This document shows, in pieces, positions 34,681-56,508 of a DNA stretch of 64,000 bases (its first letter is position 1; every line of letters begins with the position of its first letter). The DNA is from Cyanidioschyzon merolae (lineage: Eukaryota). Location of the stretch: assembly GCA_000091205.1 (NCBI GenBank), contig AP006491.2; one strand, 5' to 3'. The notes under the pieces are model-generated. The model did not search any database. It saw only the letters and a list, made by a program, of their open reading frames with translations, and was not told where the DNA came from. The position numbers and the translations under genes are program-made.

Positions 34681-35550
34681 CTACAAATGATTTGTTCCCG
34701 TCCCATGGCAGCGCTTACAGGTCAGCATACCCTTGTGTTGGCAGACGGGGCACGGTCGACACACGGTCGACGGATTTCCAAGACGCTCGCGTGCCTCTGC
34801 GTCACCCGCTTGCGCCCGCTCAACGAGCTGATTCATCTCCTCATAGCTGGGAAACGCGGAAACGTATCGGCAGCCAGCACCGCGACACCACGGGCACTGC
34901 CGCGCGCCCGCGCCGTCGCACCAGATACAGCGATCCATGTAGCTACTGAGCGGCGAGCCGAACCCGTCACTCGGATTCCGCTTTCGCCGGTAATACACAA
35001 CCGAGACTCCCCGCGATGCCGCACTGTCCGCAGCACCCGAGCCGGAACGTCTGCACGTGCAATCGTCAACGTCCTGAGCACAGGAACCGGTCCGTGCCTG
35101 CAGGGTGCTGCCTTCACAAGCACAGTCCGTCACTCCAGCAGCTGAAGCGTCCACAAGCGGTGCACGGTTGCCGGACGGCTGCGGACTCGACTGACTCTCT
35201 GGCGTAGCGGCTCCTGTTTCTGTACCTGTGCTTCTGTTTGGGTTCACCGTACGCGTGCCCGTAAGTACGCTCTGCCGCAGCTCGGACGCGAAGCGTGCCT
35301 GGAAACTAACTTCCGGGTGATACACGCCCGGACGCTCAGCCCACGCCGACAACTCCATCGCCACCGAGACCGCGTCGCGCTCATACGCTCGCTCCAGGCT
35401 GCGCCGCGTCGTCGCCCCGCCCTCGCCCAGCGCTCGTAGCTGCTGCCACCGACTCGAGTATCGACTCCGTTTCTCTACTGTCTGACCATAAATGCGCCAA
35501 CTATGTCTACTCGAAAGAAGTCTATCACCTTTCGTTCCGAGAACAAACAT
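34681..35550 (-). CDS. DnaJ-type zinc-finger (CxxCxGxG x4) protein, BSD2-like
   Basis: C-terminal 'CIWCDGAG...CPWCRGAG...CPVCQHKG...CKRCHGTG' gives four CxxCxGxG repeats typical of the DnaJ cysteine-rich domain, in a small non-J-domain protein. The track start at 35574 is GTG; ATG at 35550. Confidence 0.6.
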   Translation of the reverse strand: MFVLGTKGDRLLSSRHSWRIYGQTVEKRSRYSSRWQQLRALGEGGATTRRSLERAYERDAVSVAMELSAWAERPGVYHPEVSFQARFASELRQSVLTGTRTVNPNRSTGTETGAATPESQSSPQPSGNRAPLVDASAAGVTDCACEGSTLQARTGSCAQDVDDCTCRRSGSGAADSAASRGVSVVYYRRKRNPSDGFGSPLSSYMDRCIWCDGAGARQCPWCRGAGCRYVSAFPSYEEMNQLVERAQAGDAEARERLGNPSTVCRPCPVCQHKGMLTCKRCHGTGTNHL

Positions 35551-36289
35551 TGTCGTTCCCTCGGAGCTGTGCACAAAACACCGAACACTTTTGAAATGCT
35601 AGCAACTTTAGAAGCAACTGCAGAGGCGTTCACCACAATGTCAACGGAAGCCGCTACCCGCGAACGGTGATGGCGCTCTTGCCGGCAAAGCGCCTCCGTC
35701 AAAACGCCGCCATCACCGCTGACGCGCGTCGCCATCTCCATCGACACGCCATCGATCGCCAAGATCTTACACCACGCAGCGGCCTGCGTTACCCCGAGCT
35801 GGGCGCTTGGTATCAGTGCACGGTGTAGCATCCATCGACCGACGCCCAAGCCCCATAACCGATACTTCTGCTCGGATATACTGGTTGCTTTGTAGGTTCT
35901 ATCGTGCGCCAAGTGTGTGTCGTGAGCGTCCGCGGCAGCGCCCATAGCGCCGGTGCGGTCGCTGCACGGAGACAGAACATCGTTTCCGTACCACTGAGGG
36001 CGTCGGATCAAGGAATGCTACGCCTGACACGGACTCGGGGCTGGTTATCATTCTGGGAGCCTGCAAGCTACACATACAGAAATACTGCCTGGGGAAGCGC
36101 GAAAAATGATATGCTTGGAGTCCACTAGGAACAACGCGACGCCCAAACGCACACGAAACACCTCCAGTCCCAGAATGAAATGCCTTGCGTACGAGTTGCT
36201 CAGATCTCGCTGAAGCGTCCGTCGCTGGGCAAATCATGAAGCACAATCCTGGTAACTCGTCCGGCTCGCAGGAGCTTCCGCCTAGGAGA

Positions 36290-46662: not shown

Positions 46663-48039
46663 GGCTGCAGCGAGCACTGTGGCCCCGCCAGTTCTGGACG
46701 AGATGTTGGCTCTGCGCTTCGTCTACGAAGCACATGAGCCTGACGCTGTGTTGCGCATTCAGAGGGCCGGCTTGCGCGTCTTCAGAGTACTGCTTCCCGG
46801 ACGCCGTTGCTCAGGAGCAGCTGGAACTTTTGCTGCGCTATCGGCGACCTTGTGATAGACGCAGCGTGCAGCCATTGCATCCCGGTTCGGTGTGCTGACG
46901 CTAGGCACTCGACACCCAGAGGATCGCACAAGCGAACCAGTGCTATGATCTCCAGAGGTAAGTTTGTGTGATGGTGAAAGTGATGGTGATGATGGTTTTG
47001 GTTGTTGCCCAAGGACCCTGGAGGTCTGTTGCTGAACGTTGGACGTTCTCTCGGATGCAGGTAACCCGCTTGCAATTGAGAATCCCCGATACCTGTTTAA
47101 ACGATCCGACATCCGAAAAACTATCGTCCGCAGCGCTGCCCCTCTGAGACGGTCATTGATGGATCACGCAGATCTTCCAGTCAGAAGCGCAGCTTCTCGG
47201 TCGGTGCTGAGAGTGAAGCATCTATCGCGTATGTGTCTTCATGGAAAAAGCGACGCACTCCTGTCTCTTCGCACATGCTCACGGTCACGCGTTGCTGCGG
47301 AATATGCACCAGTTGACCGCACCGCCTGATCAGCGCCTGAGGCGAACATGAGAACGTGCTGCGCAGCGCATGTGCGGCCCCGAAACGATTCCTCTCTAGC
47401 GCTCGATCCACTGATGGAATGAAGGTCGCGTCCGAGACTCCGCCACCGCGACGAAGCGATGCTACCAAGATGACGCATCTGATGATGCTGAGCGGTGAAC
47501 GGGTTCTCGCCTGCGTCCATGCGTGCGTGCGTCCTCGTATAGCGCCCCAGTTTTCCATACTGGACGGTAACGTGGCATTTACTGATCGCTTCGCACACAG
47601 GCAGTGTCAATGTGCACACGAACGCGTGTATGAGCATCGACTCTGGGGCGCGCTACTCTTCTGGCTCGCGACCACGTCCAGGCCGGTAACCGGGCACGCA
47701 CACCGGTCTTCCATATAGCGCTTTTCCGAATTCCGTAAACACTTTTCCAGAAGGTTTCCCTTGCCGCTGTTTGTCCCAACGCATGGCTGAAGCTTTGAAG
47801 CGCCCGGAGCTCATCAGATGAGCGCAGGCGTGGAAGCGAGCGCGACTCGATCGCGATGCACGGCGTCTCCCTCGAGTCGGCGCCCTCTGTGTGGTATAGA
47901 AAAGCCGTTCTAGCTCTATGAACTATCTGCTCCAGCGGTTCAGGCGCAAAGGCGGAGACGGAACTGCAGGTTCTAGGCACACACGATAGGTCGTATGAAC
48001 CGACCAGAATATCCTAGAAGAAGTATAGGTCGTGTAACT

Positions 48040-48175
48040 TGGAGGTAGGGTGTTTCATGGATACTTCACCGTGCACTGAAAAAAACACAAAAAGAAAGGA
48101 AAAAGCGCACAATCGGAGAACGCTGGCACAAGTAAACGTCTTGTCCATGAAAAAACAAGAAGAAAAAAATGCATG
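48040..48175. repeat. solo, diverged, inverted copy of the 150-bp satellite monomer
   Basis: 'ggaggtagggtgtttcatggatacttcaccgtgcactgaaaaaaacacaaaaagaaaggaaaaagcgcacaatcggagaacgctggc' is roughly the reverse complement of the 30810-32170 monomer ('...gccagcgttctccgattatgcgcatttttcttttctttttgggtttgttttcagtgcgcggtgaggtatccaccgaatgctctacctcc'). Confidence 0.75.
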
Positions 48176-48495
48176 GCGTCTGCGCGAACAGCCGCTGCGG
48201 AGCAGCGTACCCGCCACGTCAACCGATATTGAACGAGGTGTTGGAGTCTCGAATGCCTGGGAGCGTGCCCCTACTCAGGTGCTTATCTATTAAATAAACG
48301 TCGCTGGAGCTATCGAATATTGGAGCGAGGTGCTCGCTATACTTGCTTGTGAATCGAACCGGCGAAGCGGGCGCTTTGCTCGGAGGTTCTCGCGAGGTCG
48401 GGTGGGCCGCTACCTCTGCCACAGGCATCGGCAGGTGCAGCGCACCGTGCACGTGGTGCCTCTTGGAGACGCGGCCCGCGTAGCGCTGGCCTTCT

Positions 48496-48532
48496 CGTCG
48501 CCGGTGTGTGTGTGTGTGTTTGTGTGTGTGTG
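48496..48532. repeat. (GT)n dinucleotide microsatellite
   Basis: gtgtgtgtgtgtgtgtttgtgtgtgtgtgtg. Confidence 0.9.
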
Positions 48533-49058
48533 TGAGAGGACTATGGGGCTTTTGCGAGACCTCTACGGGACGCCGTTTCCGCTCTACCTAGCCGCCTTCA
48601 CTGCGGTATTTCTGGTTCAGCTCCGTGCAGCTCGTCTTGATTTGAATCTCGTGCGCCAACGGCTTCGACAAAGGTTTTCGGAAACCGCGCGAAATCTCGG
48701 CTCGGCAACGACCGGAGCCTCCGTATCAACAACGGCTACTCCGACCGAGGCGGGCGCGTCGGTGAGAAACCCTCCACAAGCGTCGCCGGCGTCACAGTCG
48801 AAAAAGTCTGGCTCACGTACAGCGGGACAGTTCGGACGAGTTGAATAGCCTCAGCGCCGAGAAACTCGGCCTATGCGAGATGGAACCATAGGCCGCATAA
48901 CACGCCTCATCGCACATTCTCGTGAACAAGTCGGGTACAGCGCGGCTCATTTGACTGAAAGACGGATGCATTTACTCCGGTTACAGCCGGGTTGACGTAC
49001 GCTCGGAACCAAGGCTCGCATTGGAGGTTGTTTTTTTCAACCTTGCGCCCTGGATGCA

Positions 49059-49937
49059 TCACCGAATAGCTTCGAGAACCTTGCTGAAATAGAAGCGCGT
49101 CGCCGTGAATGCCGACGACTGCACCCGCCAACCGTTGCGTTCTAGGGTCTCGCGAATTTCCTTCTCTGAATGTAAGTAAGCTCGAGTCGCCTTACTGGGA
49201 CCGGGGAAAAAGTCCCCAATGCGTTTCAGCAGCACGTAGTAAAGCGTTCGGGGTGCAAACGAAAGAATCAAGCGCTGCCGGGCGATTTTCGACAAGTGGT
49301 CGATCATGTCCGCAGCCTGCGCTGTAGGATAGTGGATCAGGACGTCTATGCAGCACACAGTATCGAAGCGCTCAGTTTCGGGGATGGACTCGAGGTCTGC
49401 GGTGCGAAACGCACAACGAGCAAACTGGTCAGCGGTGAGCAGCTGCTCTGCCCGCGTACGCGCCTCTGTAGTCATGGCAGTCGAGATGTCGCATGCCAGG
49501 AGATACCTGGGGTTGCGCTGCGCGATAGGAATGGCCAGAGAGCCGACCCCGCAACCAACGTCCAGAACAGTGTGTGTAGCCCAGTCCACGGAGGCTGCAT
49601 CAAGCATACCCAGTACCTTGTGTACGGTTTCCGCGTGCCCTAACCGGATGTCACGCTGAACGCGGTTTACCTGTTCGGAATCGGAGTAAATTCGACGCCA
49701 GCGCTCGAATCCAGTGGTGTTAAAGTAGTCCGTAACAACTTGTTTGTCATCAAGCTTTCGACAAAGCAGCCTAGGACGCGGAGCGCTTCTTGCTACTCGT
49801 CGCCCGTGCACTGAAACTCTCCGAGCGCCAAACGGGGCGCAACCTAGCGGTGAGCAGCGCACTGGGGGTTCGCGTTCACCCGAAGGATTCTGTTTCGCTA
49901 ACGCGCTACGGACAGCAGACGCCTGAATGATGAACAT
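49059..49937 (-). CDS. chlM: Mg-protoporphyrin IX O-methyltransferase (chlorophyll biosynthesis), with N-terminal transit-peptide-like extension
   Basis: ATG at 49935-49937. The mature region matches ChlM motifs. The first set is 'VTDYFNTTGFERWRRIY...QVNRVQRDIRLGHAETV...VLDVGCGVGSLAIP...'. The second set is 'CIDVLIHYP...RLILSFAPRT...LKRIGDFFPGPSKATRAYLH...TRFYFSKVLEAI'. These match my recollection of cyanobacterial and plant ChlM, not a database search. First ~65 aa are rich in A/S/R/P with no acidic residues. Confidence 0.85.
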   Translation of the reverse strand: MFIIQASAVRSALAKQNPSGEREPPVRCSPLGCAPFGARRVSVHGRRVARSAPRPRLLCRKLDDKQVVTDYFNTTGFERWRRIYSDSEQVNRVQRDIRLGHAETVHKVLGMLDAASVDWATHTVLDVGCGVGSLAIPIAQRNPRYLLACDISTAMTTEARTRAEQLLTADQFARCAFRTADLESIPETERFDTVCCIDVLIHYPTAQAADMIDHLSKIARQRLILSFAPRTLYYVLLKRIGDFFPGPSKATRAYLHSEKEIRETLERNGWRVQSSAFTATRFYFSKVLEAIR

Positions 49938-51556
49938 GGAATCCCCAGGCGCTTCTACCGAAGATCGCTTACAACGATAGCAAGAGACGTCTGCGTTGCC
50001 TATATCGTGGAAACCTCGTCCGTGGATACCCCTATGAGTAAGGGATTGGCGACGGAGCTGGGATTGTCTGTCTTACACCAGCGGCGGCATCGCCCGGCGA
50101 GTACCGCTATCGACGCGACGCTGGGATACGGCAAGAGCGCAGCAGATGCTTTCGCTTCTGCAGGGTGCCGCTTCTGGAATGCCGTAGATAGTCACTGGCA
50201 ACGAGACCGGGTAGAGGTAGCGGTGGCGCGATTTCCAGCTGTATACGGGTTGCTTGGAAACTTCCGGGGGAGTCTGGAACGGTTTAGAGATCCTCAAGCC
50301 CGAAACCTATGGACGTGGTGCTCGGCGGCGATCGGTGTCTGCGCTGCTGCCTGACGCTGCAGAGACCGCAAGGGAGCTCGCGTATCCGGTCTTCTTCCGT
50401 TCTCCAGTGCGACCGGGTTTGAAAAGCGTGACACGTGAACTCTCGGGGTTACACTATTGCCCTCGAACGTAAAGTTTTCTCAGGAGAGTGGCCTCGGAAC
50501 CCCATGAGGCTGGATTGTGGCATGATAATCTCGTCATTTATATCGAGTAATAGTACAGTATTCTCGTTCACCCTTTCCCCAGGAAAACCTTTCCAGTTGT
50601 ATCTGAACCCCGCCCGAGTCTCGTTGCATGGCCCAGCCCATACCATTGCAGTATCGTGCTGCGGGACGTCATGCAACTCTGTGGCTCCAGGCCACTGATT
50701 TCTTCATCGCAAGCCTTTTGCGTTGCAGCACACTGCCCATACGGTGTACGGAACGATTCCCGGGGAAGTTCGCTCCACACAGCGCCGCTAGACGCTGCCC
50801 ATGCGCGAGGACTATATCGTAAGATCGATTCTCTTTGCTGTCGATGTCAGGCGCACACATACACACACCAGACCGACTTGCCCACAGCGCCGCACAGTGT
50901 CGCGTCCATAAGCGCGCCGCCGCTGCTACTCGAATACTGGACCAGCACCAGCAGCAAATCAAATGCCTTTACGTTGACTAGGTGAACACATAGGGTCGAT
51001 CCATTTGCACACGCGCAATATCCTTTGCCAGAGATTCGTGCCTATGATACAGGAAGGTTGACGGCTTTGGCCCGAGGAGGTCGCCTGTGGAACATCGGCC
51101 TGGTTCCCGCTTTCTGCTTATCGACGACGTTAGCACGACCGCCTTGCAGGATGCTCTCGAATGCGGCACCGTCCCCGTAGATCCGCATGGTACGAGACGC
51201 ACTCGGCGATATTGAAATGAGTCTGCATGGGGTTGCCCGCGCACACGCAGTGGCAGCACGTCTGATGCCGTGTAGCCAATTGCTGCCGCTGTAGACGAAG
51301 GCGCTGGAGCAGCGCCAAACAGACCCGCAACCCCTTGGCGGCCGAGAGCGGACGGCATGATCAGCTGTGTTGGGGTTGCTCGGCGCGGTTCGGCATCATC
51401 CCCCGAGGCAAGCCTCCGACGTGATTCCCTGTGCAGTGGCGGTCATTACATCATTCGACGCCGACGGGCGGGCGTATGGCAACTCGAAGCAGAAGGCAAC
51501 GAGGCTCCCACCCGTGTCGCTGTGACGTTTGTTAAATGGTGTGCGCATAGGCATCT

Positions 51557-53611
51557 CTACGAAGGTGGCGCTGCCGCAGACTTGAGATTTGGATCCTTCT
51601 TGATAAGCTCTTCTGCCTCGCGTTGCTCCCGTGCCATCGCCTCGGTGAACTGCCGATCCAAGCTACGAGCCGCAGCCAGCCACATGATGATGATGGATGC
51701 GAGAAAGACCGCGAGGAATGGCGTGCTGGCGGCCAAGGATCCAGTAGCGAAAATAAGGGCTTGCTGGATGAATGAGCCTCCCGACTTGCCCAGCGGGTTC
51801 CCGATCACATCGATGGCAGCTTTGCCCTTGCTCTTCGACTCTGCATCCAGTGGGATATACGCCATCTCCTTGCAAGGATCAAACAGGGAATACTTGCTGC
51901 CCTTTGAAGCGATGTTCTGCGCCGCACCGATGAGTACCGCCAGGAAGAGAGGCGTCGTGCCGAGCGCGGCAACGACTGGGCTCAGCTGCTTTGCGAATAG
52001 GGTTAGCGCAAAGAACATCATGCCCGTGATGCCTAGCGTAATCGGAGTGATCATTGCAGCCACGCCCCATCCGAAGCGGCGGAAGATGATACGGCTTGCC
52101 AACATCATGATAATGGTGAACGAGCCCGTGCAAGTCGAGAACCAGCCCATGAAGGTCGAATATGCGTTCGGGTCTGGATACTGCTCACGGAGCTTGCTCT
52201 TCCACGAGACCTCCACAATATTGATGGACATGCCGTACGCGATCACCAGAAGGGCCAAGTTGCGAATATACGGCGACGCGGCCAGAAACTTGGCTGACTC
52301 GACAAGACCCAGCTTGGTTTTCGTCTTGGCTTTCTTCTGACGCGCCGGATCGACCAATGTCGGATCCGTCATTACTTTGCGCTGCATGTAGTAGAAAACT
52401 CCCACGATGATTGATCCGCATACCGCCACTGCCCCCATTAAATAGCGCAAGCTCACGAGCCATCCGTCAACACCGGGCGGCAGATGTTGACGTATATCCG
52501 ATACGAAACGAACGTACTGACCCGAAAAGATCAGCGCAACGTTAGCCATCAGACCAAACACAGGGTACCACTTCTTCGCCTCGTCTACGGTGGTCACCTC
52601 ATTCGCAAATCCCCAGAACAAGAGCGAAACCACCACGGAACCCCAAAGCTCCGCGAGCGTATAGAACACTGCGGATGTCCAGTGCCCGATAATCGCCAGC
52701 GGAGGCGCGAATGTCGGTGGCAAATACTGCAGCGCCCAGCTCACAAACCCGCTAGGGTGCAAAAACGCCCTATTGGGATAAAGAAACCACGCATAGCTCA
52801 AGAAGAAAAGGAGGAAAGGCGCTATGCAGATGTAGAAAACAGTCTCCCGAGAGAACACATTCGTGAGCTTCGAGTACAAAATCGTAAACAGCACTGCACC
52901 GGGCAAGTTCGCATAGGTCTTCAAAAAGGGAATAATCTCTGCACCGGCCGCAGTTACAACCAGCACGTCCTTTGTATCACGCAGGATAGTGTAGTTGAAG
53001 AGAATGAGGAAGAACATAAGACCAAGGGGTATGATTTTGCGCAGCTCCCGGCTCGGCGGTGCAGGCGAGCTACTCCCGTTCGTACCGACCATGCCGTCAC
53101 CGTTCGTGCCGTACGCACTCGAGCCTGCTGCGGAAGCATCGGCCTTCAGAACGAGGCCCTCTTTTGCCTGGTCCTCTGGCTTCTGCAACCCATCCTTCTT
53201 TTGGGAACCCTTCTGCCACGAAGCCAGCAGCGCCGCTACCCCACCAAGCGCCAAGCCTACCAGTGCGCCAAGCGGCGTACCCCAGAGACGTGATGCCGGC
53301 GCCGCCGCTGCCGCCGCTGTCGCAAGTTGCGGCTGCTGAATAGACTTTTCAACTTTGGCCTCGCGATTCTGGACGATGCCAGTGCGTGGCACCACAACAA
53401 TCTGCGTCGATGTCGAGGCGGCGTTCTCTGCACCCGTGCCTGTACCTGCGCCAACACCCTCAGAGACTGCCACCAGTACGTGCCCAACGCGGGTTTTGGA
53501 ACGGTTGCGGGTACAGCTTCCGCGCTGCACACCAAGAAACCCCCTGTTCCGATAAGTCCCTCGAGGAAGAGACTGAAACGCTCTGAATGTCGTTGTGAAA
53601 CCAAGCATCAT
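51557..53611 (-). CDS. plastid-type ATP/ADP translocase (nucleotide transporter, TLC/NTT family) with ~190-aa N-terminal extension
   Basis: ATG at 53609-53611. TLC-family core ('KIIPLGLMFFLILFNYTILRDTKDVLVVTAAGAEIIPFLKTYANLPGAVLF...LWGSVVVSLLFWGFANEVTTVDEAKKWYPVFGLMANVALIFSGQYV...'). About 12 TM segments, 684 aa. Confidence 0.85.
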   Translation of the reverse strand: MMLGFTTTFRAFQSLPRGTYRNRGFLGVQRGSCTRNRSKTRVGHVLVAVSEGVGAGTGTGAENAASTSTQIVVVPRTGIVQNREAKVEKSIQQPQLATAAAAAAPASRLWGTPLGALVGLALGGVAALLASWQKGSQKKDGLQKPEDQAKEGLVLKADASAAGSSAYGTNGDGMVGTNGSSSPAPPSRELRKIIPLGLMFFLILFNYTILRDTKDVLVVTAAGAEIIPFLKTYANLPGAVLFTILYSKLTNVFSRETVFYICIAPFLLFFLSYAWFLYPNRAFLHPSGFVSWALQYLPPTFAPPLAIIGHWTSAVFYTLAELWGSVVVSLLFWGFANEVTTVDEAKKWYPVFGLMANVALIFSGQYVRFVSDIRQHLPPGVDGWLVSLRYLMGAVAVCGSIIVGVFYYMQRKVMTDPTLVDPARQKKAKTKTKLGLVESAKFLAASPYIRNLALLVIAYGMSINIVEVSWKSKLREQYPDPNAYSTFMGWFSTCTGSFTIIMMLASRIIFRRFGWGVAAMITPITLGITGMMFFALTLFAKQLSPVVAALGTTPLFLAVLIGAAQNIASKGSKYSLFDPCKEMAYIPLDAESKSKGKAAIDVIGNPLGKSGGSFIQQALIFATGSLAASTPFLAVFLASIIIMWLAAARSLDRQFTEAMAREQREAEELIKKDPNLKSAAAPPS

Positions 53612-54779
53612 AGCGACCTCTATAACGATTGAACTTGTTCGACGTGCGTGTATGTCCTACAACAACCCGACACGCATTCGAATTCGCATACGCACGCATC
53701 CGGCGCACGCATGCACCGACGGTGATGAAACGCCATCGCGATGCGTGCGCAGCATGCGGCGGTGGTGGCGGTGGCGGTGCCGGTGGCGATGCCGGTGGCC
53801 AACTCCCGTACGTTGGGTCTGTAGGCGGCATCGCGATCGCCCTGCGATGCGGCTACGGCGGCGTCGGTACGCTTCCGCCGCGGCCCGATGCGCTACGAAA
53901 TCCGTTGACAGCGCGGTGACGTCGCGCGCGTCGAGCCTCGGATGCGGCGTTCTATCGCGTGTAGCGATGCTGCTGATTTTTTTCATTGACAAAACGCTTA
54001 ATTTGACCACGGGTCCTCGAATGAACGATGATCATTGACGACTAGGGTGATCGGCCATCGTAAAGCACCCTGCATCCGGGTTCCATCACCTGTTCTCTGA
54101 TGTAATGATCGTTTTTACGTTCTATCGTGCGCCGAGTACCTGCTTTTGAGCGCCTGATAGAACGCCTGTAGCGTCACGCATGGAGTAGCGGGAGCACCGA
54201 CGCGTCCTGCATGCTATCCTGCGGAATCCTGGTGATGCAGCTCTGAAAAGCGGTATCTATGGCGGTCGCGCTGAAATATGTGCTTTCGACGGATTCGCTG
54301 CAACCGTTGAAGGTTCGGTTCCAGATGGTGTCGGTGTTCTGCGTGCTCGAGCGAGCAGGCTCTGGTGTATGATGCGGGCTGCCTGGTGCTTAGCGTCTGG
54401 ATGCAACGGATGCGCTTTCGCAAACAGTTCGTTATGTGCCGTTTGCGTTCGAAACTTGTTACCTTTCAGGAGCGAATGAAGCTTTCCACAGTACCCGTTT
54501 GAAAGGGTCTTTTAGAATGTAAAATCGGGGAATCTGAACAGAATACACGGGATTTGCGGTTGCTGTGCGCAAGCGAGGAAGAGCGCTTGATCAGCGCTGC
54601 TTCGTGGCATGTCGGGCTGGTCAGCATCGATTGTGCTCGTCCCAGCGAATCCAACCGCGCTTCTACACAGGATCACGCCCGGTCAGCGGCTCTGAATCGA
54701 ACTTTTTCTGTCGACTGCTCCGAGTCGCATGTCGTTTTCTGTTTCGCACATGCACATCAACCATGGTTTTCAGTGGATT

Positions 54780-55394
54780 TTAGCATAAACCATTATCTGA
54801 TCTGTAGCAGCGAAGTGCCCAGACTGCAGCCTCCAGGGACAAACCGAAGGCCACACCGACAGCCGCGCCTACCCAAGAGAGTGGCACTGCCCGCAAGCCA
54901 GTTGCACCGTCCACAACCTGTTCATGGATGAGATCCGTGAGCACAGCTCCGAGCCACCAGCCGAACGCGCCGAGGGCCAGACTGCCGAAAAGGAGCTGGC
55001 TAAGGAGGAGGGCGTCTCGGTTCCCGGAACCCGTGTGCAACGGGGCAGTCGCCTGTTTCCTCAGAGACTGCGTACACTGCTCATACTCGAGTCGTGCGAG
55101 GAACGCTCGGAACCTTTGCCGCGCTTCATCGTCAGCGCTTAACGAAGTGTCATCCTGCGGCAACTGCCAGCGCACGAGCGTGCTCTGAACGAGTTCACGC
55201 ACCGCATCCTGGGTGTATCCCGAACCGAGCGCGACGTCCAGCAGCTCTCTGTGCGATATCCAGCACTTCTCGAAGGTCGCTGTGTCGTCAAGCACTGAAC
55301 CAGGCCCGGAAATGACATCGCGCTGGCTGCGCCCCTGAGTCGCTGCTCTCAGAAAGGCGCGAACTTTGGGGTCTGTGGCGTCGAGCCACGGCAT
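54780..55394 (-). CDS. hypothetical protein with C-terminal transmembrane segments (possibly tail-anchored)
   Basis: The track start at 55409 is TTG; ATG at 55394. Soluble N-terminal region then 'LLFGSLALGAFGWWLGAVL' and 'WVGAAVGVAFGLSLEAAVWAL'. No recognised family. Confidence 0.3.
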   Translation of the reverse strand: MPWLDATDPKVRAFLRAATQGRSQRDVISGPGSVLDDTATFEKCWISHRELLDVALGSGYTQDAVRELVQSTLVRWQLPQDDTSLSADDEARQRFRAFLARLEYEQCTQSLRKQATAPLHTGSGNRDALLLSQLLFGSLALGAFGWWLGAVLTDLIHEQVVDGATGLRAVPLSWVGAAVGVAFGLSLEAAVWALRCYRSDNGLC

Positions 55395-55866
55395 AGAGCC
55401 GACCAGCAAACCTCTCCACGAACTGACGACGATTCGCTGCTCGTGTACTCCTGGCTCGCGCAGCCGGTGTCCGTGTCACGCTTCACAGGGCAGACACAAC
55501 GCAGTGTTCGTGTCCTACGGAACGGTAACGGTCGAGTCAGACGTCGCGTACGACAGCAGGCAGCGCGCAAGCTTGTCTGCTGAAGCAACACCACCGCTTA
55601 ACGCACACTAGTTCGACTCGAGTGACACGCTCGAGTACGTCTCTTTGTTGTGTGTGCGTACGCATCGAGGTTTCGTGAACGTTTATAGTGCATGTTTGCA
55701 GCACCGACACTCACGGCACCCGCTCGACCGTAGCATCTAGCCAACTCGCTACGTTGCACCAGTGTCGTGCGTCACGGAACGCCACGTTGCGGAGCGCACC
55801 TGGACCCTAACGACGACTGCTGCCTGCTCATCACCGTTGCTTTATTGGAAGCACACCAATAGTTTT

Positions 55867-56508
55867 ATGGGTGCAGCGGCAGCAGCGCCTCGTTGCCTTG
55901 TGCTTGCCGGCCCTTCGGGTGTCGGCAAGGGAACCGTGCTTGCGCGTCTCAGTCAAGTGCTCCCGGACGTCTTCGGCTTCTCCGTATCGCATACGACGCG
56001 GGCACCGCGTCCTGGTGAGTGCGACGGGCGCGAATATCACTTTGTCACGGAGGAGGAGTTTCAGCGAGCCCGCGCTGAAGGCCGCTTCCTCGAAACTGCA
56101 TCCGTGCATGGTCAGTGGTACGGAACGAGCTGGGAGGCCATTGAACGTGTACGTCGCACTGGACGAATCTGCGTACTGGACATTGATGTGCAGGGCGTGC
56201 GCAGCATCCGAGCTGCAAAGCTTCCAGCGCTCGTCGTTTTCTTGCGACCGCCGAGCATGGCGGAGCTGGAGCGACGTCTCCGTGGTCGCGGGACGGAGGA
56301 CGAGGCCAAAATCCAACGCCGCCTCGAGACTGCTGCCGAAGAGCTGCGGATAGCACATGAAGAACCCTCGCTCTTCGATGCTATTATCGAGAACCAGGAT
56401 CTCGAAGAGACCTGCGCACAGATACGAAAACTGCTTGACGAGGACGTGCAGGCGCTTCGCGGTGTGCGCGAGGCTGGAGCAGCATCCGCTGCACAGCGAA
56501 CGAGTTGA
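55867..56508 (+). CDS. GUK1: guanylate kinase
   Basis: P-loop 'LVLAGPSGVGKGTVLARL'. GMP-binding 'FSVSHTTRAPRPGECDGREYHFV'. 'VLDIDVQGVRSIR' and lid 'RRLRGRGTEDEAKIQRRL'. The track start at 55762 is GTG; ATG at 55867 (MGAAAAAPRCLVLAGPSGVGKG). Confidence 0.85.
   Translation: MGAAAAAPRCLVLAGPSGVGKGTVLARLSQVLPDVFGFSVSHTTRAPRPGECDGREYHFVTEEEFQRARAEGRFLETASVHGQWYGTSWEAIERVRRTGRICVLDIDVQGVRSIRAAKLPALVVFLRPPSMAELERRLRGRGTEDEAKIQRRLETAAEELRIAHEEPSLFDAIIENQDLEETCAQIRKLLDEDVQALRGVREAGAASAAQRTS

Follow-up and report, generated by a model that had tools for sequence, protein, structure and literature searches.

Within the 64,000-nucleotide stretch of the Cyanidioschyzon merolae genome analysed here (contig AP006491.2, assembly GCA_000091205.1; hereafter the window), two uninterrupted open reading frames (ORFs) lie in tandem on the minus strand: a Mg-protoporphyrin IX O-methyltransferase gene, ChlM, at 49059..49937 (292 codons plus stop), and a plastid ATP/ADP (nucleotide) transporter gene, NTT, at 51557..53611 (684 codons plus stop), separated by a spacer of 1,619 bp (49938..51556). 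The initial annotation of this DNA, made from its letters alone, had read them as two plastid-function genes on the same strand some 1.6 kb apart, and both the reading frames and the gap bear this out. An exact-sequence look-up matched every residue of the two products to proteins of C. merolae 10D, namely BAM79944.1 / XP_005536230.1 ('Mg-protoporphyrin O-methyltransferase') and BAM79945.1 / XP_005536231.1 ('chloroplast ADP,ATP carrier protein'), so the window comes from a nuclear chromosome of C. merolae, the source is indeed plastid-bearing, being a red alga, and both genes are already known and annotated in the published genome. The exact NTT protein (XP_005536231.1) has also been cloned, expressed in Synechococcus (strain SynBD1) and assayed for ATP/ADP exchange, according to the available part of PMC11632070, and the gene identities accordingly add nothing new.

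The one modestly new point of the locus is a conserved red-algal helix in the N-terminal extension of NTT. The initial annotation had put this extension at ~190 residues with an internal hydrophobic stretch, and had asked whether all of it was presequence or whether the first ATG lay too far upstream. The extension measures 187 residues, with the hydrophobic stretch at residues 109-133; the start codon proves sound, and the data favour a third option, in which the right ATG is followed by a transit peptide of ~60 residues and the remainder is a conserved red-algal N-terminal module carrying a predicted membrane helix.

Both are ordinary intron-less nuclear genes, with products that are predicted to be synthesised in the cytosol and taken up by the plastid. 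There, ChlM would methylate Mg-protoporphyrin IX with S-adenosylmethionine (SAM) in the chlorophyll pathway, and NTT, as a nucleotide transporter of the TLC family (TC 2.A.12) in the inner envelope, would exchange ATP for ADP. Here, we describe the two proteins and their N-termini, before then weighing the fate of the NTT helix and the significance of the gene pair. Coordinates of segments within either gene refer to the minus strand.

The ChlM enzyme and its presequence

The product of the first gene can be assigned from its sequence as a Mg-protoporphyrin IX O-methyltransferase (EC 2.1.1.11). It scores 214.4 bits against TIGR02021, the BchM/ChlM equivalog model (cutoff 158.9), with residues 64-289 covering model positions 1-217 of 218, while the second-best methyltransferase model reaches 43.8 bits only, and the family-specific C-terminal domain PF07109 (Mg-por_mtran_C) is matched at 125.5 bits by residues 196-292 across all 97 profile positions. 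Residues 61-292, the predicted mature enzyme (49059..49757), are colinear with residues 5-229 of the ChlM of Synechocystis sp. PCC 6803 (4QDJ; also 4QDK) at 231 bits, a full-length likeness that takes in the GCGVGS SAM-binding loop, RRIY and DVLIHYP. The SAM-binding DVGCGVG (GCGVG at residue 128), Tyr84 in RRIY and His202 in VLIHYP are all identical in 4QDJ, and the last two align with the Tyr and His that we take to be catalytic in the Synechocystis enzyme (Y28 and H139). The match to the equivalog model and the full-length alignment with 4QDJ speak against a grouping with non-ChlM SAM methyltransferases, and the description of the protein as a bona fide ChlM stands.

The Synechocystis enzyme has no presequence, whereas C. 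merolae ChlM adds ~60 residues of putative basic targeting sequence at its N-terminus (49758..49937). This region had been described as ~65 residues long, A/S/R-rich and acid-free; an Arg-rich extension is present, but it is nearer 60 residues and acid-poor rather than acid-free, with an MF start (F2), 12 Lys/Arg against two acidic residues (E21 and E23) and a net charge of +10. Residues 1-60 share 31% identity with their Cyanidiococcus counterpart, with indels, as opposed to 78% for residues 61-292, and similarity to Cyanidiococcus at the DNA level starts at 49751, corresponding to residue 63. Cyanobacterial ChlM has nothing that corresponds to residues 1-60, its alignment opening at residue 61. 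We would expect this N-terminus to behave as a rhodophyte-type transit peptide, with a cleavage position that is an estimate.

The NTT transporter core and its phylogenetic placement

Family profiles, colinearity with solved NTTs and tree position together identify the product of the second gene as a probable plastid ATP/ADP transporter. It matches the Pfam TLC profile PF03219 at 623.4 bits (residues 188-655, profile positions 21-491 of 491) and TIGR00769 at 631.3 bits (cutoff 387.2), and these matches, together with the exact identity to the chloroplast ADP,ATP carrier, uphold its earlier naming as a TLC-type ATP/ADP translocase. Residues 189-667 are colinear with residues 27-501 of Arabidopsis thaliana NTT1, a member of the same family (9J3J, 594 bits; also 9J3L and 9J3M), 58.6% of residues being identical in the alignment of the core, and a second solved NTT, 9J3N, is matched at 496 bits. 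The core itself (residues 188-655; 51647..53050), which corresponds to the 12-helix core of the solved NTTs, is all-helical in the AlphaFold2 (AF2) model, with a predicted local distance difference test score (pLDDT) mostly of 80-97. It is followed by a charged C-terminal tail (residues 656-684 plus stop; 51557..51646), for which the ratio of nonsynonymous to synonymous substitution rates (dN/dS) against Cyanidiococcus is 0.08.

The closest database relatives of NTT are, in order, the protein of Cyanidiococcus (84% identity over the full length), that of Cyanidium, those of other red algae and those of lineages with red-derived plastids. In a neighbour-joining tree, a distance method applied here to 28 taxa and 475 columns with 100 bootstraps and a small bacterial sample, the Cyanidiales form one group (100/100), nested in a red and red-derived group (98/100) that takes in NTT1 of diatoms and other complex plastids, such as that of Thalassiosira pseudonana, and all of these fall within the plastid NTT group (100/100). 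The NTTs of Chlamydiota and other bacteria stand apart. Chlamydial NTTs (for example Protochlamydia amoebophila NTT1; 9J3N) are usually taken as the source of the plastid transporters and have the same TLC core, the 80 bacterial loci recovered, mostly from Chlamydiota, being 48-58% identical to C. merolae NTT, but they match only from about residue 181-207 onwards, lack an N-terminal extension and form a separate group, whereas the C. merolae protein has both the extension and the plastid-group placement.

With a family that is mostly bacterial and relatives at this level of identity, NTT might be suspected of being a contaminant, or a bacterial TLC gene of chlamydial or rickettsial origin. 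Its exact identity to a protein on a C. merolae nuclear chromosome record and its place inside the plastid NTT group refute such an origin, to which we assign practically no probability; the eukaryote-type N-terminal extension, not found in the bacterial homologues, and neighbours that are typically eukaryotic (a ubiquitin E1 enzyme and an MSP-domain protein) speak against it as well. The earlier view of NTT as the plastid type, rather than one that groups with bacterial or parasite TLC proteins, is therefore sustained by the tree.

A separate observation concerns one database entry. The 2,221-bp contig RGQD01000535.1, binned as 'MAG: Betaproteobacteria bacterium' (MAG, metagenome-assembled genome), carries an entire NTT gene. 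The N-terminal extension of its product is of eukaryotic type and rich in Ala and Pro, and the protein falls with the land-plant NTTs in the tree; very probably the contig is DNA of a green alga that was wrongly binned with a bacterial assembly.

The NTT start codon and transit peptide

The annotated start ATG of NTT is correct, because an in-frame stop lies 15 codons upstream, an MLGF start is common to the NTTs of Cyanidioschyzon, Cyanidiococcus and Cyanidium, a Phe stands near the N-terminus, and the sequence ahead of Met174 is under selection. A Phe occurs within the first 10 residues of all 24 long red-type NTTs compared (24/24), and a Phe near the N-terminus is a requirement described for the transit peptides of glaucophytes and the red lineage (PMC2222254). 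In C. merolae the protein opens with MMLGF, the Phe being F5, and its first 50 residues contain nine Lys/Arg and no Asp/Glu. Residues 1-84 are disordered in the AF2 model, with pLDDT below 50 over residues 1-60. Composition, the MMLGF start and fast evolution suggest that only about the first 60 residues (53432..53611) behave like a transit peptide, the exact cleavage position again being an estimate.

Met174 is the only other in-frame Met ahead of the core, and gene calls from metagenomes give shorter proteins for some relatives, which could be read to mean that the annotated start lies too far upstream, that translation begins at Met174 (or at Met199) and that the apparent extension is an untranslated leader. 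Against this, residues 61-173 are under protein-level purifying selection (dN/dS 0.03-0.36), and the upstream region stays in frame over three genera despite indels, opens with the conserved MLGF Phe motif and contains a module common to ~45 red-type NTTs. With a start at Met174, the protein would also lose all of the conserved elements of its N-terminus, and a transporter of the inner envelope would lack any signal to target it there; we regard such a start as extremely unlikely.

Florideophyte-type and diatom-type NTTs have in common a conserved Met-Ser (P-L/M-x-M-S or L-Y-M-S) that aligns with FICKAE of Arabidopsis NTT1, just before the AGNG motif (alignments A3 and A4), and several short NTT database entries (~505-517 residues) start exactly at the Met of this pair. 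Such starts may be truncated gene calls, or may mark a processing or alternative-start site.

A conserved helix within the NTT extension

Downstream of the transit-peptide-like region, the NTT extension can be divided into three segments. Residues 61-108 (53288..53431) make up a pre-helix segment of intermediate constraint, with a conserved Pro75, in a (V/I)P motif, and Pro105. Residues 109-133 (53213..53287) form a conserved hydrophobic helix, here termed TM0, which has a face of small residues (G115, G119, G123 and A126/A127) and a basic cluster directly after it. Residues 134-187 (53051..53212) constitute a charged, Gly/Ser-rich linker, in which LVLK156/A157DA aligns with FICKAEAAAAGDG of Arabidopsis NTT1 and which also contains an NGDG motif. 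The AF2 model places a helix at residues 113-140 and disorder at residues 148-185 (pLDDT below 50), and the best 19-residue Kyte-Doolittle (KD) mean within residues 109-133 is 1.94.

These segments have evolved at very different rates. The comparison was made with the orthologue from Cyanidiococcus yangmingshanensis (CCYA_CCYA11G3199 / KAF6002099.1), which has the same MLGF start, helix and linker. The dN/dS falls from 0.64 (35% identity) over residues 1-60 to 0.36 (60%) over residues 61-108 and 0.03 (88%) over residues 109-133, followed by 0.06 (77%) over the linker and 0.02 (95%) over the core at residues 188-655. The helix is under purifying selection about as strong as that on the transporter core, while the transit-peptide parts of ChlM and NTT from these two species are only 31-35% identical, with indels. 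At the DNA level, similarity to the Cyanidiococcus gene starts at 53341, at about residue 91, and against the protein of Cyanidium the helix retains 80% identity as opposed to 26-29% in its flanks.

A hydrophobic 19-mer (KD mean mostly 1.6-2.0) lies within the sequence of about 45 red-type NTTs, some 65-80 residues before helix 1, with an Arg/Lys cluster immediately after it. In an alignment of 43 sequences, a small residue is found at each of positions 115, 119, 123 and 126/127 in 84% or more, columns that form a predicted helix-packing face, and a basic one at positions 132-134 in 60-67%.

Outside this set the helix was not found. Arabidopsis NTT1 is, like C. merolae NTT, nuclear-encoded with an N-terminal extension, and the two have the motifs [IV]-x-K-A-[DE]-A and GDG/NGDG in common just before the core, but the Arabidopsis extension is of ~109 residues and lacks a hydrophobic helix (best KD 19-mer 1.05), unlike the 187 residues with conserved helix and basic cluster in C. 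merolae. The helix is likewise lacking in 120 angiosperm NTTs, with extensions of ~109 residues and a maximum KD of 1.29, in one green-algal-type NTT, and in the bacterial NTTs, whose matches begin only beyond it. Diatom-type NTTs have the ...PP.xERKKL.PL motif before helix 1 in common with the C. merolae protein; their hydrophobic stretch, however, stands right at the N-terminus as a signal peptide, followed by a GF/SP-type motif in extensions of only ~80-110 residues, in contrast to the internal helix with a basic C-terminal flank.

We found no description of the N-terminal helix in the accessible literature, in which PMC11632070, in its available part, is the only paper that mentions this protein. 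When a profile of the N-terminal module, built from 22 sequences, was compared with 1.84 billion representative proteins, only nine matched, and of the four inspected three were NTT fragments and one was a repetitive secreted protein, a low-complexity false match. Two proteins of 5,271 and 1,296 residues match the profile in many short stretches, probably also through low complexity. The module looks NTT-specific at the sensitivity of this search, which says nothing of its taxonomic spread because the library was clustered at 50%.

A thylakoid-type signal peptide was considered for residues 109-133 and rejected: the basic residues come after the hydrophobic core, and there is neither an AxA site nor a twin-arginine motif.

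Retention or removal of the helix

The order of elements in the extension suggests how it might work. A fast-evolving transit peptide of ~60 residues with an N-terminal Phe would be followed by a moderately conserved segment, then by the strongly conserved helix with its packing face and Lys/Arg cluster, and finally by the charged linker leading into the transporter core. We tentatively prefer the reading that mature NTT retains the helix as a thirteenth, N-terminal membrane helix specific to red algae, because it is the sequence itself that is conserved, beyond mere hydrophobicity; we would put the chances of this somewhat short of even. The positive-inside rule, applied to the basic cluster after the helix and to the basic segment before helix 1, would place the linker in the stroma. 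The helix would then cross the inner envelope, its N-terminal end pointing into the intermembrane space and its basic flank into the stroma. A mature protein of this kind is predicted to have a mass of ~66-67 kDa.

A number of points weigh against this reading or limit it. The stretch of Arabidopsis NTT1 that we take to lie near the end of the plant transit peptide, FICKAEAAAAGDG, aligns downstream of the helix, at LVLK156/A157, as expected if the helix is removed. Within the AF2 model, the helix has a pLDDT of only 53-68 and is not confidently docked onto the core. The topology argument leans on the positive-inside rule and on the cytoplasmic location of the termini of bacterial Tlc proteins. 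Breadth of conservation is a further consideration, since the red-type affiliation of many of the sequences was assigned from similarity and N-terminal motifs, and the NTTs of Porphyridium and Erythrolobus show no clear helix, which means either that the helix is not universal in red algae or that those gene models are truncated.

Given where the Arabidopsis stretch aligns, the whole of the first 156 residues could instead be a long bipartite presequence. A transit peptide for the stroma would come first and a conserved hydrophobic element for sorting or insertion second, the latter acting solely while the protein is imported into the inner envelope, and everything up to about K156/A157 would then be cut off. 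Mature NTT would in that case be equivalent to the mature plant protein, with 12 helices and a mass of ~57.6 kDa once the extension is removed to A157. This alternative draws on the alignment of the plant stretch with LVLK/ADASAAG of C. merolae (residues 153-163; alignment A3) and with VMK/AE, MK/AD and PLxM/S in other red-type NTTs, always past the helix, and on the sharing of the [IV]-x-K/A-[DE]-A motif between plants and Cyanidiales. It also accords with an alignment in the available part of PMC11632070, which marks the N-terminal extension with its conserved Phe, treats the whole of it as targeting sequence and assigns the protein twelve helices.

Set against removal is the degree to which the helix is held constant within the Cyanidiales while its flanks drift, along with the conservation of its small-residue face, which exceeds what is usual for generic sorting signals. 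The plant cleavage position that anchors the comparison is, moreover, an assumption on our part. The basic cluster stands after the helix rather than before it and no AxA-type site lies downstream, a layout that suggests a stable membrane anchor and not a cleavable signal peptide. On balance we consider complete removal of the extension the main rival, somewhat less likely than retention of the helix, which we keep as our tentative preference.

Gene order and neighbouring features

The neighbours of ChlM and NTT are ordinary eukaryotic genes, encoding a guanylate kinase, a tRNA-binding-domain protein, a VanZ-like protein, a YCII-domain protein, a ubiquitin-activating E1 enzyme and an MSP-domain protein, in a window of ~57% G+C. 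Two plastid genes on the same strand and 1.6 kb apart could form a functional unit, for example a co-regulated pair with common control elements, and in Cyanidiococcus the NTT-then-ChlM order and the strand are indeed kept. So, however, are all of the flanking genes, a synteny that spans the guanylate kinase, tRNA-binding protein, VanZ-like, YCII and E1 enzyme genes, and because the whole neighbourhood is syntenic the pair appears as part of this general colinearity. In Cyanidium, the gene after NTT encodes a RecD2-like helicase, and the adjacency to ChlM is absent. The spacer measures 948 bp in Cyanidiococcus as opposed to 1,619 bp in C. merolae, and neither it nor the region upstream of NTT has any DNA similarity to the Cyanidiococcus locus, conservation being confined to the coding parts. 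No Rfam family (at the gathering threshold, across 47000-56000) and no tRNA (in a scan of the whole window) was detected in or around the two genes. Plastid-targeted proteins would also be expected to make up a sizeable share of algal nuclear genes, so that chance neighbours should be frequent. A functional unit is very unlikely on these grounds, and we found no evidence that the adjacency is more than inherited gene order, an accident peculiar to this lineage and its compact genome.

Taken as a whole, the explanation that two plastid-imported proteins are encoded here, that the NTT start is correct, that the NTT extension is composite, with a retained helix as the preferred reading, and that the two genes are adjacent by chance has, in our estimation, a probability of roughly 85%.

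Several further ORFs in the window were noted. The ORF at 34681-35574 (minus strand), initially called a 'BSD2-like' zinc-finger gene, has an MF... start and does contain two pairs of CxxCxGxG-type zinc-finger motifs, but scores 22.7 bits against Pfam BSD2_CRD, under the cutoff of 27, for which reason 'DnaJ-type zinc-finger protein' is the safer label. An ORF of ~204-209 residues at 54780-55409 (minus strand), between the NTT and guanylate kinase genes, has no Pfam match and a hydrophobic C-terminal part; its positional counterpart in Cyanidiococcus is a called, domain-less gene of 209 residues (L001 7885-8514). Two antisense ORFs within the NTT gene, at 51357-52340 (plus strand, 327 residues) and 52484-53293 (plus strand, 269 residues), are regarded as shadow ORFs that arise from the G+C-rich coding sequence. 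Finally, a 101-residue ORF at 48543-48848 (plus strand; MGLLRDLYGTPFPLYLAAFTAVFLVQLRAARLDLNLV...) faces ChlM tail to tail, with 210 bp between its end and the ChlM stop. It is kept at the syntenic site in both Cyanidiococcus assemblies, with the same Met start and 58-59% amino acid identity over 73 residues (tblastn E ~1e-22), and neither assembly has a gene call there; its exact sequence is absent from the protein collection, and it may encode a small membrane protein that has escaped annotation. Neither of two small neighbouring ORFs had a match in the exact-sequence look-up.

Implications for red-algal nucleotide transporters

The extension of C. merolae NTT is not a uniform targeting sequence: part of it is a helix under selective constraint, and the plant and chlamydial NTTs of solved structure have no such helix. 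In practical terms, the expression and modelling of red-algal NTTs depend on where the mature protein starts, and with a constrained helix inside the extension, full-length, transit-peptide-truncated and fully truncated constructs may behave differently. The choice of construct matters for comparisons of directionality between red-algal and plant NTTs, which bear on early plastid bioenergetics. In the available part of PMC11632070, a cell-based assay found that some red-algal NTTs, with the Cyanidiococcus and Gracilariopsis proteins named, export ATP more easily than the plant transporter. If the helix is indeed retained as a thirteenth membrane helix, it could serve in oligomerisation, in the binding of a partner or in the tuning of transport, and it might then bear on this reported difference in ATP export between the NTTs of red algae and land plants.

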